Positions 26,987 through 33,998 of a stretch of 64,000 nucleotides of DNA are shown here, piece by piece. The notes under the pieces are model-generated. The model searched no databases and was not told the origin of the DNA. It was given only the letters and a program-made list of their open reading frames with translations. How positions within the stretch are numbered: the stretch's first letter is position 1; every line of letters begins with the position of its first letter. The translations under genes and the position numbers were made by a program. The stretch lies in NCBI GenBank assembly GCA_035296625.1, contig DATHAO010000049.1:3264-67263 (forward strand), given 5' to 3'. The stretch comes from Acidimicrobiales bacterium. GTDB lineage: Bacteria; Actinomycetota; Acidimicrobiia; Acidimicrobiales; VFJN01.

Positions 26987-28162
26987 TCAGGTGGGGGTGG
27001 CGGCGCGGCGGAGGGCGCGCTCGAGAAGGAGCGGGTCGCCGAGACGGCGGCGCAGCTCGCGTTCCAGTCCGGCGATCGGGTGCAGGTTCTGCGGCGCCCG
27101 GGCGTCGTTGTGGGGCTGGCTGGCGAAGCGGGGCAGAGTGGCGGTGACCCGATCCGCCACCCTCACGGCGTCGTCGCGGTTGAGCTCACCCGACAGCTCG
27201 CAGCGAACGACGCCCCACCAGGCATGGGTCGCAGGCCCCGGCAATCGGAAGTACCACGAGTACCGGAACCGGTGCGCTCCGGTGGCGAACAGCGGCGTGC
27301 GCTGCCCGGCCGCCAGCTGCGTCACGACCTCCTGGCGGGCGGGCGGCAGGTACGACACGTGGTGCGCCTTCACGTAGCCCACAGCCCCCGGGATGTGGCG
27401 GCGATCGCCGAGCGGACCGTCGACGACGAGCAGGTCGTCCTCGTCGAACCGGACGTCCGCTCGGCCCAGCGGGACGCCGACACCGGCGATGCCGTCGGCC
27501 TCCACCCCGTCCTCCACCTCCACCCCACCGGGGCCCGTCGGACCCACGCCCGCAGGCCCGACCGGCTCGACCGGCCCGACCGGCGCGCCGGCGCCGCCCG
27601 AACCCGAGCCCGTACCCGCACCCCAGCCCGCAGCCGTACCCGCACCCGCAGCGACCATCACGGAGACCGGCATGGGGGCGGAGCACGACGTCCCAGCCCG
27701 GGCCTCGACGGCCACGCGGCCCTCCAGGTCGCCTCGCCCCCGCCCGAGGGCCTGACCGAGGGGATCGCCGCCGCCGTCGGGCACCGGGTACGGGTGGTAG
27801 TCCCCATGCATGGTCAGGATCGGCTCGACGCCGTCCCCGGGGCACAACACCCCCCGCCGCACCTCGGCGACAACGACCTGGGCTCGGCCATCGCAGCGCA
27901 CGGCGCCGGCACCCCAGCTGGCGCACAGGCCCTGTCGCGTCGTGCCGTCGTCGCCGGTCACCCACACACGGGCGTCGACCCGCTGGACACCGTCGACGAA
28001 GTACACCGTCCGCGGCGGGGGCACCGGGCCCGGGTCGACCGGGGCCCAGTCGTCGGGCAGCGCCTCGACCGCCAGGTCGACCGTGGCGGTCGAGGCGTCG
28101 AGCACGGCGGCGTCGACCGGCGCACCGTAGTCGGGGGCCCAGGTCTCGACGGCGAAGCGCAT
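26987..28162 (-). CDS. NurA-like nuclease candidate (divergent; would otherwise be called hypothetical)
   Basis: 391 aa. ATG 28162-28160 shares 1 nt with the sbcC stop. Motif order is YFVDGVQ ... LLVVDGPL ... VGYVKAHH ... YSWYFRL ... PQNLHPIAGLERELRRRLG. Has an internal Gly/Ala/Pro/Val-rich insert. Confidence 0.45.
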   Translation of the reverse strand: MRFAVETWAPDYGAPVDAAVLDASTATVDLAVEALPDDWAPVDPGPVPPPRTVYFVDGVQRVDARVWVTGDDGTTRQGLCASWGAGAVRCDGRAQVVVAEVRRGVLCPGDGVEPILTMHGDYHPYPVPDGGGDPLGQALGRGRGDLEGRVAVEARAGTSCSAPMPVSVMVAAGAGTAAGWGAGTGSGSGGAGAPVGPVEPVGPAGVGPTGPGGVEVEDGVEADGIAGVGVPLGRADVRFDEDDLLVVDGPLGDRRHIPGAVGYVKAHHVSYLPPARQEVVTQLAAGQRTPLFATGAHRFRYSWYFRLPGPATHAWWGVVRCELSGELNRDDAVRVADRVTATLPRFASQPHNDARAPQNLHPIAGLERELRRRLGDPLLLERALRRAATPT

Positions 28163-30654
28163 CAGGCCTCCACCCGCTCGACCGTGGCGGCGCCGCCGAC
28201 CTTGCGCACCTCGAACCGAACCGGCAGCCGCTCGGCCAGCTCGCGCACGTGCGTCACCACACCCACCATGCGCCCGCGGGCGCCCAGCTCGTCGAGGGCG
28301 GCGGCCACGATGTCGAGCGTGTCCGGGTCGAGCGTGCCGAAGCCCTCGTCGAGGAACAGCGCTTCGAGATGGGCCGAGCCACCCACGGCCAGACCCGCCA
28401 CCTGATCGGCCAGCGCGAGCGCCAGCGCCAGCGACGCTAGGAAAGTCTCGCCCCCCGACAGCGTGCGGGCCGGGCGGGTCTGCGAGGCGTTCGTGTGGTC
28501 GACCACCAGGAAGCCGCCCGTCCTCGTGTCGACGGCCAGCGAGTACCCGCCGCCGCTCAGCTCGCCGAGGATGTCGGTGGCGCCGGCCACGAGTTGGTGG
28601 ACGGCCTCGTCGAGCAGCCACTTCTCGAACCGGTTGGCGGCGAGGTGAGCGGCCAGGGTGTCGGCGACCTGGTGCTGCTCGACGGCGGCCCCGGCGTCGG
28701 ACCGCAGGCGCTCGACCTCGGCGAGCTGGGCGTCGAGGTGGTCGACGGCCTCGTCGGCTCGGGCCCGGGCGGCGGCCACGGCCTCGCCCGGCCAGGACGC
28801 GCCGACGTCGGTCACTCCCGCATCGCGGCAGGCGGCCAGCAGGGCCTCGAGCTGGGTCGCCGCCTCGGCCCGTGCGGCATCGACGGCCCGGCGCCTCTCG
28901 GCGGCGGCCTCGGCGAGCACGGGGCGGCGCTCGGCGGCCCAGGCGAGCAGGGCGTGCCAGTCGGCCGCAAGGTCGCACCGTTCGGCCGCCGGGGGCGCGA
29001 GATCGGCGACCGTGTCGCGGGCGGTGTCGAACGCCCGGCGGGCCTCGCGCTCGCGCTCGACCAGCCCGGCGTACCGCCGCTCGGCCGCCCGCCGGGCGAG
29101 CCGCGCATCACGTTCGGCCCGCCGCGCCTTCTCGAGCGTCTCCTCGGCGTCGACCACGACGGCCAGCTGCGCCTCGATGGCCGCCACGTCGATCAGCGCC
29201 GCGCCCCCATCGACGCCGGTGCCGGTGCCGGCGGATTTGACCCGCCCCGGGCGGGAGGCCGCGGACGGGGCGAGCGCCGGAGCGAGCGACGCCAGCGCGG
29301 CCCCCAAGCGGGCGTCGAGCTCGGCCAGCTCGGCGCCCACCCGCATGAGCTTCTCGTCGATGCGGGCCTGGTGGGTGCGGGCCTCGGTCAGCGCCCGGCC
29401 GGCGGTGGCTACCACGGCGTCGGCCTCGGCCAGCGCCCGCTCGGCGGCGGACAGATCTGCGGGATGATGCCCGGCCGGCAGCTCCTCAACCGCCTGCTGG
29501 CACACCGGGCACGGCTCGCCGACCGCCAGCTCGGGGACGAGGGCCAGTGCCCGCAGCTCGGCCCGGACGCGCTCGAGGTCGGCGGCGCGCTCTTCGCGGG
29601 CCCGGCGTGCGGCCTCCTCGACCTCGGCCGCGATCGCGACCCGGTCGGCCGCCTCGGCCTCCGCGCCCCGGCCCCGGCCGAGCGTGTCGACCAGGCCGGC
29701 CCGCCGCCGGTGGTCGCCGAGCAGGGCGTCCAGGGTGCGCCGGTCGGGCAGGGCGGCCAACCTCTCCTCGCCCTCGGTGACCGCGGCCACGGCGTCGTCG
29801 TCGATCTCGGCGGCCTGGTGCCGGGCGTGGTCGGCCTCGCCGACCGCAGCGGCTAGCTCGTCGACCCCGTCCGGGGCGGTGAGCGCTCCGACCCGCTCGG
29901 CCTGCTCGGCCGCGAGCTCGGACCGCTCGGCCGCCTCGACGGCCCGGGCTGCCAGCTCGTCGAGCCGGGGGCGCTCGGCCGCCAACCGGTCGCCAAGCCG
30001 GGTGAGCCGGGCGATCCGCTCGACGGCGGCGGCCCGCGCTGCGGGGGTGGCCGCGGCCAGACGGTCGAGCTGCCCGGCGACGACGTCGGCCCGGTTGCGG
30101 GCGAGCGCACCCCGTTGGCGGGCGACACTCGCGACCCGGTCGTAGAGGCCGAGGTCGAGCAGGCGGACGAGAAGGTCCTGCCGGCTGCGGGGCTTGTCGT
30201 GCAGGAACCGGGCGAACTGGCCCTGGGGCAGCGACACGCACGTCGTGAAGTGCTCGAACGTGAGGCCGAGGCGCGCGGTGACCGCCGCCGTGACCTCGTC
30301 GGCCGTGCCGGCCAGCACCTCGCCGCCGCTCTCGAGACGGGCCTCCTTGGTGGTGGCGCCGCCCGCCTTGGTCGCCCGGACGACGCGCACGGCCGTGTGA
30401 GACACGCCGTCGATCGTGAAGTCGAGCCGGACCCGCGCCTCGTTGAGGTTCTGGCTGATGACCGGCGCCACCGCCCGCCTGTCGTCGAGGCGGGGCACCG
30501 AGCCGTAGAGCGCGAACGTGAGGGCGTCGATGACGCTGGTCTTGCCGGCGCCGGTCGGCCCCGCCAGCGCGAACAGGTCGGCGCCGGCGAAGTCGACGAC
30601 CGTCGGCGCCCGGAAGGCGGTGAAGCCCTCGATCTCCAGCCGCACCGGCCTCAT
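28162..30654 (-). CDS. sbcC: SbcC/Rad50-family DSB repair ATPase
   Basis: 830 aa. Has the N-terminal GPTGAGKTSVIDA Walker A, long Ala/Glu/Arg coiled coils, the central CPVCQQ zinc hook, the C-terminal LSGGETFLASLALALAL signature and the LFLDEGFGTLD Walker B. Confidence 0.9.
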   Translation of the reverse strand: MRPVRLEIEGFTAFRAPTVVDFAGADLFALAGPTGAGKTSVIDALTFALYGSVPRLDDRRAVAPVISQNLNEARVRLDFTIDGVSHTAVRVVRATKAGGATTKEARLESGGEVLAGTADEVTAAVTARLGLTFEHFTTCVSLPQGQFARFLHDKPRSRQDLLVRLLDLGLYDRVASVARQRGALARNRADVVAGQLDRLAAATPAARAAAVERIARLTRLGDRLAAERPRLDELAARAVEAAERSELAAEQAERVGALTAPDGVDELAAAVGEADHARHQAAEIDDDAVAAVTEGEERLAALPDRRTLDALLGDHRRRAGLVDTLGRGRGAEAEAADRVAIAAEVEEAARRAREERAADLERVRAELRALALVPELAVGEPCPVCQQAVEELPAGHHPADLSAAERALAEADAVVATAGRALTEARTHQARIDEKLMRVGAELAELDARLGAALASLAPALAPSAASRPGRVKSAGTGTGVDGGAALIDVAAIEAQLAVVVDAEETLEKARRAERDARLARRAAERRYAGLVEREREARRAFDTARDTVADLAPPAAERCDLAADWHALLAWAAERRPVLAEAAAERRRAVDAARAEAATQLEALLAACRDAGVTDVGASWPGEAVAAARARADEAVDHLDAQLAEVERLRSDAGAAVEQHQVADTLAAHLAANRFEKWLLDEAVHQLVAGATDILGELSGGGYSLAVDTRTGGFLVVDHTNASQTRPARTLSGGETFLASLALALALADQVAGLAVGGSAHLEALFLDEGFGTLDPDTLDIVAAALDELGARGRMVGVVTHVRELAERLPVRFEVRKVGGAATVERVEA

Positions 30655-32063
30655 AGCAGCCGCCGCTGGCCGGGTGCCCCGGACGGCCGCTCCGCGGCGC
30701 CGGCCGCCTCCGCCGGACGGCCGGACCGCCCGGCCCCGATCGCCACCGGCTCGGGCTCGGCCGAACGCCCGGCGTGCTCTCCATCGGGCTCGGCGGAGCG
30801 CCCGACCGGCGGGCCATCGGGCTCGGCGGCTCGCTCGGGATGGGCCCCGCCGGCGGAGTCGGGCGCGACGTCGTCGGCGGCGTCGACATCGATGTCGTCC
30901 TCGAGCGGCTCGCTGGTCATCTCGTCGACCAGCTCGTCGAACAGGCGGACCACCCGCTCGTCCGCGGCGTCATGGTCGTCGAGGTACTCGGCGAACAGGT
31001 CGTGCGGGGTCCGGCGCAGCCGGTCGGGATCGGACCGGCGCCGCGCCTCGTCGCCCTCCCGAGGCGCCAGCACGACCTCGACGGCGTCGGGTACTTGGGC
31101 CCGGATTTCGTCGGCGAGACCGGCCCGGGCGGACTCGTCCAGCACGATGCGCAGGTGGGCGTCGCCCACGACGGCCGGGTCGGCCGCCCGGGCCAGCACG
31201 TCGGCCAGCGTGCCCCGCAGCGTGCGCAGCCGGCGGCCGGCCCTGAGCGGGACACCCCGCACGGTCGCGGGTAGGCCGGGCCGCAGCTCCACCACGTTGA
31301 CCGCGGGGTCGTTGGCCGTCTCGCCGAAGTCGAGCTGCAACGGCGAGCCGCAGTAGTGCAGCGGCGCCGGCCCGGGCAACCGCTGGGCCCGGTGGAGGTG
31401 GCCGAGCGCCACGTACTGGGCGGCGCCGGGGAACGCGGTGGCCGGCACCCAGTAGTCGAACACCGTGTGAGCGCCGCGCTCGCCGCCGCCCAGCTCGCCG
31501 CCCATGACCGTGAGATGGGCGACGACGAGGTTCACCGTGTCGCCACGGAACCCGGCGGTGAGGGCGTGGAGGATGCGCCCGACCCGGTCGCGGTAGGTCT
31601 GGTTCGCGTCGGCGGCGTCGCCGGCGAGCAGCTGGTCGGCGGTGACGACGTAGCGCTGGGAGGGGAACGGCACCAGGGCGACGAGGGCCGTGTGGCCGCC
31701 GCCGTCGACCTCGAGCACGCCACCGTCGGTCGGCGGCCGGATGGACGGGGCCACGTGGATGCCGCTCGCCGAGGACAGCGGCGCCACCGCCCCGAGCCGC
31801 TGGGCCGAGTCGTGATTGCCGGAGATGACGACCACGGGCCGGCCACCGGCGGCCAGGTCGAGCAGCGCCCGGTAGACGATGCGCTCCGCCTCGGCTGTGG
31901 GGGTGGACGTGTCGAACAGGTCGCCGGCCACGATGACGAGGTCGACCGACTCGGCGTCGGCGATGCCGGCGATCTCGGTGAGCACGGCCTGGTGCTCGGC
32001 CGCCCGGGACCGCCCGCGCAGGGCCTTGCCGACGTGCCAGTCGGAGGTGTGGAGGAGCTTCAC
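30651..32063 (-). CDS. sbcD: SbcD/Mre11-family nuclease
   Basis: GTG 32063. Contains MKLLHTSDWHVG, VIVAGDLFD, SGNHD and GHLH phosphoesterase motifs. Shares an ATGA overlap with sbcC. Has an acidic/low-complexity C-terminal tail of about 90 aa. Confidence 0.9.
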   Translation of the reverse strand: MKLLHTSDWHVGKALRGRSRAAEHQAVLTEIAGIADAESVDLVIVAGDLFDTSTPTAEAERIVYRALLDLAAGGRPVVVISGNHDSAQRLGAVAPLSSASGIHVAPSIRPPTDGGVLEVDGGGHTALVALVPFPSQRYVVTADQLLAGDAADANQTYRDRVGRILHALTAGFRGDTVNLVVAHLTVMGGELGGGERGAHTVFDYWVPATAFPGAAQYVALGHLHRAQRLPGPAPLHYCGSPLQLDFGETANDPAVNVVELRPGLPATVRGVPLRAGRRLRTLRGTLADVLARAADPAVVGDAHLRIVLDESARAGLADEIRAQVPDAVEVVLAPREGDEARRRSDPDRLRRTPHDLFAEYLDDHDAADERVVRLFDELVDEMTSEPLEDDIDVDAADDVAPDSAGGAHPERAAEPDGPPVGRSAEPDGEHAGRSAEPEPVAIGAGRSGRPAEAAGAAERPSGAPGQRRLL

Positions 32064-32120: not shown

Positions 32121-33998
32121 TCAGCCCTGCGGGAAGCCGGCGAAGGGGTCGATCTCGGCGGGGCGCGTCGAGCCGTTCGTCCCGTGGCCGTTCGCGTGGC
32201 CGTTGCCGTTCGTGTGGCCGTGGCTGTTCGTGTGGCCGTCGCCGGCGCCCGCCTCGGCCCGGTCACCAGATCCGGCGGGGCCAGGACCGCCCGATCCGCC
32301 GGCCAGGCCCGTGGCCGCCTCGCTGGCCCGCGTGGCCCACGCCGGGAACGGGAACTGCACGACGAGCGGGATGGGCAGCTCGGGCTGGCTGACCAGCATC
32401 GTGCCCGGCTTGACGATCGTGGCCCGCAGGCGCTGCACGGGGGGCAGGAAGCCGTACTCGCCCCGAGTCGCCTCGGCCGAGTCGAGCCGGCCCACGACCC
32501 GGATGGCGGAGTTCGCCACGATGCGCCGCTCGACCTCGCTCGCCGTCTGCTGGGCGCCGACGAGGATGATGCCGAGGGACCGCCCCCGCTCGGCCACGTC
32601 GAGCAGGATCTCCTTGATCGGGCTCGATCCCTCGCGGGGGGCGTACTTGTTGAGCTCGTCGAGCACGACGAACTGCAGGGGCCGGGCCTGGCCGGACCGC
32701 TCCTTGCGCTCGAACGCCTGGCCGAGCACGACCCCCACCACGAAACGCTTGGCCCGGTCGTTGAGGTTGTGCAGGTCGACGACCGTCACCTGGGCCCGGT
32801 CGAAGTCGACCTGGTGGCGCTCGGGCCGGGGCACATCGGCCCGGATGAGTGAGCGTAGGTGGGGCCGGGCGCCGTGCAATCGCCGCAGGAACGCGTTGAT
32901 CGTGCCCGCACCGATCGCCCGGCCGCCCCACTGTTCGAGCCCGTCGAGGTCCACCTTGGCGCTGATCAGCTCGACGAGGTCGTCGAACGTGCGCACGACG
33001 ATGCCGTCGATCTCGACCATCCCGTCGTCGAGCGGCTTCGCCTCGTGCTTCAGCCTGGCGGAGACGTTGTGGACGACCATCGTGTACTGCTGGCGGTCGT
33101 CCTGGCTGTCGGCGAAGAGGAACGGCAGCAGCTCGTCGGCGCAGAACTGCTGGATCGTCCAGAAGAACGACGTGACGTCGCGGGCCCGGGAGGCCACGTC
33201 GGGGCTGGCGTTCGGGTCGTCGCGGGTGGGCGGGGCGAAGAACGCCACCGACCCGAACGGCCCGGCGGGCAGGCCGAGGCGGGCGTAGCGGGCCGGCTCG
33301 TGATCGCCCAGCTCGGTGTTCGCGTGGTCGAGGAAGAGGAGATCCTCGCCCTTCACGTTGAAGATCAGCGCCTTGGTGTTGGCCGACTCGGGGCCCAGCA
33401 CCCCCGAGTGGAAGACGCTGTAGAGCAGGAAGCTGGCGTACGTCGTCTTGGTCGCCACCCCCGAGACGCCGCTGATGTTGACGTGCGCGCCCCGCGTGCC
33501 GTCGAGGAACTCGAGGTTGAGGTAGAAGGGCTCGTCGTCGCGCGACAGGCCGGCCGGCAACCGCTGGCGCATCTGGGTGAACAGCAGGGCGTCGTCGCGG
33601 TCGGCCCCGACGGCCTTGCGGACCTCTTGCCCGGGCAGCGGCGGGACGAAGATCTCGGGCTCGAACCGGGTGGCCAGCACGAGCGCCGCCTCGCTCACCT
33701 GCGCCGGGAGAACGCCGTCGGCGACGAGGAACACGTCGGAATCCATCCGGGCGCCCTCATGGCGGGCCCGGACCTGCGACACGACGCCGGAGATGCGCAG
33801 CCGCTGGCCGTCGGGAAGGGCACGGTCGACGAAGACGACGTCGTCGAGCTGGAGGTAGGAGCCCTCACCCACCCCGACCCAGAACTCGAGAGGGGTGGCG
33901 GGCTCGGTGCCGATGACGCGCCCCACCACGGGCGAGGCGGACACGGCCCCGTCGGCCGCCGGCGGGACCGCGCTCGGGGAGGGGACTGCGCTGTCCAT
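32121..33998 (-). CDS. HerA-like FtsK/HerA-superfamily ATPase
   Basis: 625 aa. Has an N-terminal barrel-like region (VGRVIGTEP..LEFWV...YLQLDDVVFV), the P-loop segment NISGVSGVATKTT, the Walker B LQFVVLDELNKYAP, and GRSLGIILVGAQQ further downstream. Sits 57 nt upstream of sbcD. Confidence 0.65.
   Translation of the reverse strand: MDSAVPSPSAVPPAADGAVSASPVVGRVIGTEPATPLEFWVGVGEGSYLQLDDVVFVDRALPDGQRLRISGVVSQVRARHEGARMDSDVFLVADGVLPAQVSEAALVLATRFEPEIFVPPLPGQEVRKAVGADRDDALLFTQMRQRLPAGLSRDDEPFYLNLEFLDGTRGAHVNISGVSGVATKTTYASFLLYSVFHSGVLGPESANTKALIFNVKGEDLLFLDHANTELGDHEPARYARLGLPAGPFGSVAFFAPPTRDDPNASPDVASRARDVTSFFWTIQQFCADELLPFLFADSQDDRQQYTMVVHNVSARLKHEAKPLDDGMVEIDGIVVRTFDDLVELISAKVDLDGLEQWGGRAIGAGTINAFLRRLHGARPHLRSLIRADVPRPERHQVDFDRAQVTVVDLHNLNDRAKRFVVGVVLGQAFERKERSGQARPLQFVVLDELNKYAPREGSSPIKEILLDVAERGRSLGIILVGAQQTASEVERRIVANSAIRVVGRLDSAEATRGEYGFLPPVQRLRATIVKPGTMLVSQPELPIPLVVQFPFPAWATRASEAATGLAGGSGGPGPAGSGDRAEAGAGDGHTNSHGHTNGNGHANGHGTNGSTRPAEIDPFAGFPQG
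32173..32240 (-). repeat. short-period repeat (GTGGCCGTT-type) encoding the His/Asn/Gly-rich C-terminal tail of the HerA-like protein
   Basis: The DNA is ...CCGTGGCCGTTCGCGTGGCCGTTGCCGTTCGTGTGGCCGTGGCTGTTCGTGTGGCCGTC... It translates on the minus strand to GHTNSHGHTNGNGHANGHGTNG. Confidence 0.8.

Follow-up and report, generated by a model that had tools for sequence, protein, structure and literature searches.

The question raised by this locus is whether a protein that matches no domain model and carries a long low-complexity segment can be a NurA nuclease and, if so, what purpose it would serve. The locus lies within a stretch of 64,000 nucleotides from an Acidimicrobiales bacterium (contig DATHAO010000049.1), hereafter the window, whose G+C content is about 75%. 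The gene in question, here called nurA, occupies positions 26987-28162 on the minus strand and is the last of four tightly packed genes, herA-sbcD-sbcC-nurA. A first-pass annotation, made from the letters of the window alone, had suggested a divergent NurA-like candidate. Searches with the sequence, with profiles of its homologues and with a predicted structure indicate that the product is very probably a catalytically competent NurA of the bacterial type, that is, a metal-dependent DNA nuclease with an RNase-H fold, partnered by HerA.

Homology and fold of the nurA product

26987..28162, minus strand: nurA coding sequence, 391 amino acids plus stop; identified by a check of the open reading frame, the match to a PDB sequence and the top Foldseek matches, 7f6d_G and 1zup

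When the nurA product was compared by phmmer with all PDB chain sequences, the sole match was chain H of 7F6D, the NurA of Deinococcus radiodurans (drNurA; E=1.7e-16). A profile of 26 close homologues (alignment A1) found the same protein with E=2.2e-27 and also brought in TM1739, the NurA of Thermotoga maritima (TmNurA; 1ZUP). With a wider profile, made from 38 homologues with identities as low as 36% (alignment A2, the source of all statements about invariance below), the match to 7f6d_H had E=1.1e-48 and covered positions 26-305 of the 308 in the profile; that to 1ZUP had E=9e-14.

The predicted structure leads to the same place. An AlphaFold2 model calculated from the 38-sequence alignment had a predicted local distance difference test score (pLDDT) of 81.3 and a predicted template modelling score of 0.78, and superseded a mediocre earlier model (pLDDT 63) that had been made from the shallow 26-sequence alignment. 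Foldseek comparison of the model with the PDB returned, at E<=1e-3, only 7f6d_G (E=1.5e-17, template modelling (TM) score 0.67) and 1zup_A/B (TM 0.70-0.71). Just above this threshold lay the nuclease subunit of TdpAB (8wfd_G; E=1.2e-3, TM 0.35), and the weaker matches were to RNase H domains. The model has an N-terminal strand and a beta3-alpha1 insertion that appear to be those of the bacterial NurA type, and neither of the archaeal NurA structures 2YGK and 3TAI was matched at E<=1e-3 in the PDB sequence or fold searches. Since the archaeal structures were not recovered, the protein is best placed with the bacterial type of NurA.

The proposal of a divergent NurA has thus held up, since the sequence and profile searches of the PDB return bacterial NurA structures only, and the predicted fold matches the same structures. 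It had been said that the proposal should fall if no RNase-H-like fold were predicted and if the candidate acidic residues varied among homologues; the fold is predicted, and the residues are conserved. The refinements are that the protein belongs with the Deinococcus and Thermotoga enzymes rather than with the archaeal ones, and that a fourth catalytic residue, E147, had been missing from the earlier list.

The reading frame lies on the minus strand and is open throughout. Third-position G+C content, taken in windows of 30 codons, ranges from 0.77 to 1.0 across the whole frame, the low-complexity segment included, and this coding-type composition argues that the frame is real along its entire length. 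By its coordinates, the nurA ATG shares one nucleotide with the TGA stop codon of sbcC (28162-30654), and the N-terminus that follows, MRFAVETW, is conserved among homologues, which supports the chosen start.

Active site and N-terminal element

28118..28159, minus strand: putative N-terminal beta* strand (amino acids 2-5), W8 and pin-like segment (amino acids 9-15); placed by the model strand, residue numbering and the conserved Trp
27980..28003, minus strand: motif I, YFVDGVQR (amino acids 54-61), with putative catalytic D57; aligned to drNurA D53 and TmNurA D49
27722..27724, minus strand: E147 in helix alpha1, putative second active-site carboxylate; aligned to TmNurA E140 (E152 of the chain) and to a drNurA Glu
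27410..27433, minus strand: motif II, LLVVDGPL (amino acids 244-251), with putative catalytic D248; aligned to TmNurA D157 (D169 of the chain) and to LVLQDGPV of drNurA
27359..27382, minus strand: VGYVKAHH strand (amino acids 261-268) with K265; aligned to drNurA K201
27053..27100, minus strand: C-terminal motif RAPQNLHPIAGLEREL (amino acids 355-370) with R355 and E367; aligned to drNurA R309 and TmNurA E280

In the profile alignment, the tetrad D57/E147/D248/E367 falls on TmNurA D49/E140/D157/E280, and D57, K265 and R355 fall on drNurA D53, K201 and R309; these numbers allow for a 12-residue tag offset in the 1ZUP chain and a 20-residue offset in 7f6d_H. The four TmNurA residues are those of its active site, where E280 stands in for H411 of PfNurA (PMC3300031). 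In drNurA, the substitutions D53A, K201A and R309A each remove all nuclease activity and W8A impairs resection, K201 being the counterpart of SsoNurA K202 (PMC9960219).

All seven of the residues that these comparisons single out (D57, E147, D248, E367, K265, R355 and W8) are invariant among the 38 sequences. The same is true of F55, G58 and R61 in motif I, of G249 and P250 in motif II, of G262 in the VGYVKAHH strand, and of R355-L360, P362, I363, L366 and L370 in the C-terminal motif. As read from the alignment, therefore, the active site is complete and invariant.

The N-terminal element had to be mapped by residue number, since the first 25-30 residues fall outside the hidden Markov model alignments. 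In drNurA the first seven residues mediate dimerisation, and residues 10-15 form a pin that unwinds the DNA (PMC9960219). The AlphaFold2 model places a strand at amino acids 2-5 of the window protein, and the matching numbers, together with the conserved Trp, suggest that this strand and the segment behind W8 are equivalent to the drNurA strand and pin.

Much of this had been anticipated. The five motifs listed in the first-pass annotation (YFVDGVQR at amino acids 54-61, LLVVDGPL at 244-251, VGYVKAHH at 261-268, YSWYFRL at 301-307 and PQNLHPIAGLERELRRRLG at 357-375) lie exactly where it put them. Its choice of D57 and D248 as first and second catalytic Asp agrees with the alignment, which pairs them with the Asp residues of motifs I and II, and the likeness it saw between VGYVKAHH and the GxSK strand of NurA is borne out by the pairing of the invariant K265 with drNurA K201. 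E367 can be identified as the acidic or His residue that it had sought in the C-terminal helix.

The low-complexity insert

27449..27697 (approximate), minus strand: Gly/Ala/Val/Pro insert, about amino acids 156-238, in the alpha1-beta4 loop; delimited by comparison with insert-free relatives

In the model, the insert separates the long helix alpha1 (amino acids 134-159), which carries E147, from the motif II strand (amino acids 243-249). Its existence had been recognised before, with a length of 73 amino acids; comparison with relatives that do not have it extends this to about 83, of which 23 are Gly, 14 Ala, 13 Val and 9 Pro. The pLDDT falls below 50 solely for amino acids 164-233 and exceeds 90 in the core on both sides, so that the insert is predicted to be a disordered surface loop generated by repeats. 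Tandem Repeats Finder detected arrays with periods of 6, 9 and 18 nucleotides at 27499-27529, 27551-27592 and 27597-27650, which fits the earlier description of a segment encoded by short GC repeats. Because all of these periods are multiples of three, at least part of the insert is likely to have arisen by in-frame slippage.

Homologues show how variable this loop can be. Most of the best 120 are 305-330 amino acids long and have 2-8 residues at the insert site. When two genomes of the same genus were compared, one was found to encode a 313-residue protein with no insert and the other a 465-residue protein whose insert, about 155 amino acids long, is unrelated. In this longer protein (locus L083, G402:C163:12600-14500) the insert occupies the same loop, is rich in Asp, Pro, Trp and Gly and contains repeats of the type DPD(G/A)WPASYD; an unrelated sequence in the same loop points to a recurrent expansion site. 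A closer relative (P0005, 87% identity in the 26-sequence alignment) shares the stretch PVEPVG...AGVGVP with the window protein, and its insert is shorter by about 20 amino acids. Inserts at this loop are found in several lineages (the window, P0005, P0006, P0018, P0024 and G402) and, judged from these sequences, the alpha1-beta4 loop is a hot spot of rapid, lineage-specific, repeat-driven expansion. That relatives within one genus either have no insert or have an unrelated one implies that the insert is tolerated rather than required.

The HerA-contacting loops of drNurA are beta2-beta3, beta3-alpha1, alpha3-alpha4 and alpha4-alpha5. Since alpha1-beta4 is not among these, the insert would be expected to point away from HerA. 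The expansion of the loop is unusual and is probably non-functional.

Why annotation overlooks the protein

Scans of the nurA product with Pfam and NCBIfam gave no match, even at E<=1. The Pfam NurA model, PF09376, likewise returned nothing for the protein with its insert cut out, and nothing in a scan of the genome to which the window belongs; in control genomes, it detected the D. radiodurans and T. maritima NurA proteins. Within the family, PF09376 matches 23 of the 38 aligned members at E<=1, with a best value of 2e-12; a few members exceed its 21-bit cut-off and others fall just short.

The possibility that the insert alone hides the NurA domain was considered and rejected, as its removal does not bring the Pfam match back; the divergence of the clade as a whole, rather than the insert, explains the miss. 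The miss is a limit of the sensitivity of the model, which does not reach the close Acidimicrobiales clade, and not the loss of a biological feature. All of the homologues that bear a name are annotated as ‘hypothetical protein’ and, with Pfam and NCBIfam both blank, an automated pipeline would probably give the window protein the same label, as had been foreseen.

The herA-sbcD-sbcC-nurA operon

32121..33998, minus strand: herA, 625 amino acids, at the head of the operon, product predicted to be the motor that works with NurA; match to D. radiodurans HerA (drHerA, 7f6d_B)
30651..32063, minus strand: sbcD, Mre11-like nuclease, 470 amino acids; TIGR00619 (E=1e-55) and Pfam Metallophos
28162..30654, minus strand: sbcC, Rad50-like ATPase, 830 amino acids; TIGR00618 (E=3e-79) and Pfam AAA_23 and SbcC_Walker_B

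The HerA-like partner on which the first-pass annotation had counted is encoded in the same operon, and aligns with drHerA over almost its entire length (E=9.3e-144). Its P-loop, NISGVSGVATKTT (33441-33473), looks non-canonical but is nearly identical to NISGISGVATKTS of drHerA, in which K175 and T176 serve as the functional Walker A residues, and is thus typical of the family and not deviant. The Walker B sequence, VVLDELNKYAP, is also almost identical. Beyond the region that aligns with drHerA, the C-terminus of the window HerA (32121-32240) is a tail rich in Gly, His and Asn that includes GHTNSHGHTNGNGHANGHGTNG, another low-complexity extension in the operon.

By their coordinates, sbcD overlaps sbcC by 4 nucleotides. 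A scan of the operon for promoters and terminators found nothing above the shuffled background. Against the models of PADLOC-DB, NurA had no match, HerA partially matched mad8 (4e-9) and a HerA model (9e-9), and SbcC partially matched mad3 (1e-23). The mad3 match is limited to the C-terminal ATPase half of SbcC, and the mad3 and mad8 matches probably reflect shared ATPase cores rather than membership of a MADS system.

Gene order and distribution

Eighty related loci were collected from species-representative genomes, most of them from the Acidimicrobiales and the others from Microthrixaceae, Nitriliruptorales, Egibacteraceae, Solirubrobacterales, Nakamurella, a Mycobacteriales metagenome-assembled genome (MAG) and Vicinamibacteria. 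Gene order was counted in the 54 that have at least 6 kb of sequence upstream. The order seen in the window, herA-sbcD-sbcC-nurA, is found in 46 of these and nurA-herA-sbcD-sbcC in 3, so that herA is linked to nurA in 49 of the 54. Of 75 loci in which this could be tested, 53 have an SbcC homologue that ends no more than 700 nucleotides upstream of nurA. The flanks, which comprise enoyl-CoA hydratase to one side of the operon and DUF3097, ABC-F and NifU to the other, are also kept in close relatives, and the locus is a stable chromosomal housekeeping neighbourhood, not a mobile island.

Loci L076-L079, from Solirubrobacterales and from MAGs labelled Vicinamibacteria (Acidobacteriota), carry NurA proteins of 40-51% identity in the order nurA-herA-sbcD-sbcC, which implies either spread across phyla or mislabelled bins.

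The genome to which the window belongs is a 3.45-Mb MAG (79 contigs, 81% complete), and nurA is present in it as a single copy. Of 18 genomes from the same taxonomic family, 12 encode a member of this NurA family, as do 89 of the 401 genomes that were sampled across the phylum, Actinomycetota. Its retention is high in several families (for example 23/26 and 16/22), and many genomes of the same order have no such gene. In a representative library, the NurA family amounts to 1678 clusters at 50% identity (E<=1e-3). Homologues of NurA and HerA in Actinobacteria have been mentioned in general terms (PMC8708640), and the NurA-HerA system has been called present in ‘only a few bacteria’ (PMC9960219), a statement that the present distribution contradicts. 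Horizontal transfer of nurA into this genome was considered and rejected, given its presence in 12 of 18 family genomes and the conserved synteny of its flanks.

Models for RecJ (TIGR00644) and RecC (PF04257) matched nothing in the genome, a result that says little since the MAG is 81% complete. Two PDDEXK_1 domains are present elsewhere in it (C31:4768-5499 and C76:33466-34161), and may belong to AdnAB- or AddAB-like enzymes.

Role of the operon and alternative explanations

The properties of the four proteins can be combined into a scheme for the resection of DNA ends, which, by analogy with known systems, we consider the probable primary role of NurA in the cell. SbcCD, presumably made from the same transcript, would be the first to recognise the DNA end and to open or clean it, which is the part that Mre11-Rad50 plays in the herA-mre11-rad50-nurA system of archaea. 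A NurA dimer, joined through its N-terminal strand, would cap the HerA hexamer, as in the drNurA-HerA complex (PMC9960219), and ATP-driven translocation by HerA would feed duplex DNA into the dimer, where the pin and the region of W8 may separate the strands. Cleavage at the D-E-D-E site, where K265 and R355 would hold the phosphates, would then fall mainly on the 5' strand and leave RecA a 3' tail.

Several points weigh against the identification or against this role. PF09376 misses the protein, so that membership of the NurA family rests on the PDB-sequence, profile and fold matches. The acidic patch through which drHerA contacts NurA, D78/E80/D81, is partly kept in the window HerA, where it reads D-x-F-L, and the NurA-HerA interface may therefore differ. 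In 5 of the 54 loci (L046, L049, L058, L062 and L064) the arrangement is sbcD-sbcC-nurA with no adjacent herA, the place of herA being taken by unrelated genes for a thiolase-like protein, a sulfotransferase and an amidohydrolase; in this family the tie of nurA to sbcC is closer than its tie to herA. Finally, loss of both nurA and herA makes D. radiodurans about 10-fold more resistant to UV and mitomycin C instead of more sensitive (PMC9960219), and a 2026 review sees the bacterial NurA-HerA complexes as acting mainly against foreign DNA (PMC13748450).

The last two of these points lead to an alternative in which the identification as NurA stands but the main task of the four-gene module is to degrade incoming DNA, whether phage, plasmid or transforming, instead of repairing chromosomal breaks, as proposed for the NurA-HepA of Thermus and for HerA/NurA-like defence pairs such as TdpAB. 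The weak fold match to the TdpAB nuclease subunit, the partial PADLOC matches and the patchy distribution of the gene within the order would suit such a role, as would the failure of the D. radiodurans knockouts to become sensitive to damage. However, NurA itself matches no PADLOC model and the matches of its partners cover generic ATPase cores only, there are no mobile-element genes nearby, and the neighbours are of the housekeeping kind (DXP synthase, NifU, ABC-F, DUF3097, enoyl-CoA hydratase), with the same flanks recurring across many species. The single-copy state of nurA, its high retention in several families and its linkage to SbcCD, a core repair complex, also speak against it, and we regard defence as the main function as rather unlikely. 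A different departure from the end-resection scheme would be that the primary partner of NurA in Actinomycetota is SbcCD instead of HerA, an SbcCD-NurA(-HerA) supercomplex providing a main and hitherto unrecognised route of double-strand break resection in lineages where RecJ and RecC are not found, with the expanded loop as a lineage-specific tether; this speculative arrangement appears decidedly unlikely.

Two further explanations turn on the insert. If the loop were functional in its own right, it could be a flexible tether or interaction region (for SbcCD, SSB or RecA, for example) that adapts NurA to the co-encoded SbcCD, and both its recurrence at the same place in several lineages and the translational coupling of nurA to sbcC would then make sense. 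But the inserts are not conserved in sequence, even within one genus, most family members with the same operon have none, and composition and in-frame microsatellite structure point to replication slippage, which makes such a function very unlikely. The converse idea, that the insert has disabled the enzyme and left a decaying or non-catalytic NurA remnant that serves as a structural subunit only, draws on the presence of the 83-residue segment only a few residues ahead of the motif II strand with D248, and on the failure of Pfam to recognise the protein. It is hardly credible, given that all catalytic and DNA-contact residues are intact and invariant, that the frame is open with coding-type third positions throughout, and that the core flanking the insert is modelled with a pLDDT above 90. 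Relatives with longer inserts (proteins of 456-465 amino acids) keep all motifs, and the Pfam miss persists without the insert, clade divergence being sufficient to explain it. A catalytically competent NurA with a tolerated loop expansion, probably acting with HerA and SbcCD in end resection, is the reading that is kept here.

The window protein adds a divergent member to a family already known, in an operon of known type, and represents neither a new kind of system nor a new mechanism. Its interest lies rather in giving a concrete function to many ‘hypothetical’ proteins, in 1678 clusters and about one-fifth of the sampled Actinomycetota genomes, and in the stable conservation of the archaeal-style HerA-Mre11-Rad50-NurA four-gene arrangement in a major bacterial lineage. 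A NurA loop that tolerates from 0 to about 155 inserted residues should also be useful for protein engineering and for improvement of the Pfam model. A literature search found no paper on the actinobacterial operon; the related items were the general mention in PMC8708640 and an account of Oceanithermus (PMC5448004).

Comparison with known systems

The closest characterised relative is the NurA of D. radiodurans (DR_0836; 7F6D chains G and H), to which the window protein is homologous almost from end to end (profile E=1.1e-48, TM 0.67). D53, K201, R309 and W8 of drNurA correspond to D57, K265, R355 and W8 of the window protein, and both proteins have the C-terminal motif RAPQNL...LE and, probably, the N-terminal strand and pin region. 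The two HerA proteins likewise share their P-loop, and differ in the acidic contact patch that is partly conserved in the window. The NurA sequences have diverged to about 22% identity in the structural alignment, and the 83-residue insert in the alpha1-beta4 loop belongs to the window protein. The D. radiodurans nurA-herA pair is presumably not in an operon with sbcCD, whereas in the window all four genes are in one operon. TmNurA (TM1739, 1ZUP) is more distant, at 16-17% identity and without the insert, but has the same RNase-H-like fold (TM 0.70-0.71; profile E=9e-14) with all four active-site residues aligned, and shares with the window protein a Glu instead of a His at the position in the C-terminal helix.

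A bacterial cluster of related content, nurA-hepA-sbcD-sbcC, has been described in Oceanithermus profundus (PMC5448004). There, as in the window, NurA and HerA are joined with SbcD and SbcC, and the order is that of the Solirubrobacterales and Vicinamibacteria loci (L076-L078). The cluster belongs to another phylum and has another gene order, nurA being last in the window.

In gene order, the operon of the window is matched exactly by the herA-mre11-rad50-nurA operon of archaea such as Sulfolobus and Pyrococcus. The differences are that all four window proteins are of the bacterial type, and that motif III has Glu in the window and His in the archaea. Bacterial NurA proteins form a dimer through the N-terminal strand and have a pin motif, without the beta4-beta5 or M-domain insertions of the archaeal enzymes (PMC9960219). 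Yet the same four roles, those of a hexameric translocase, an Mre11/SbcD nuclease, a Rad50/SbcC ATPase and a NurA nuclease, are laid out in the same sequence in both operons, and the tight packing of the genes in each implies that the products are translated together.

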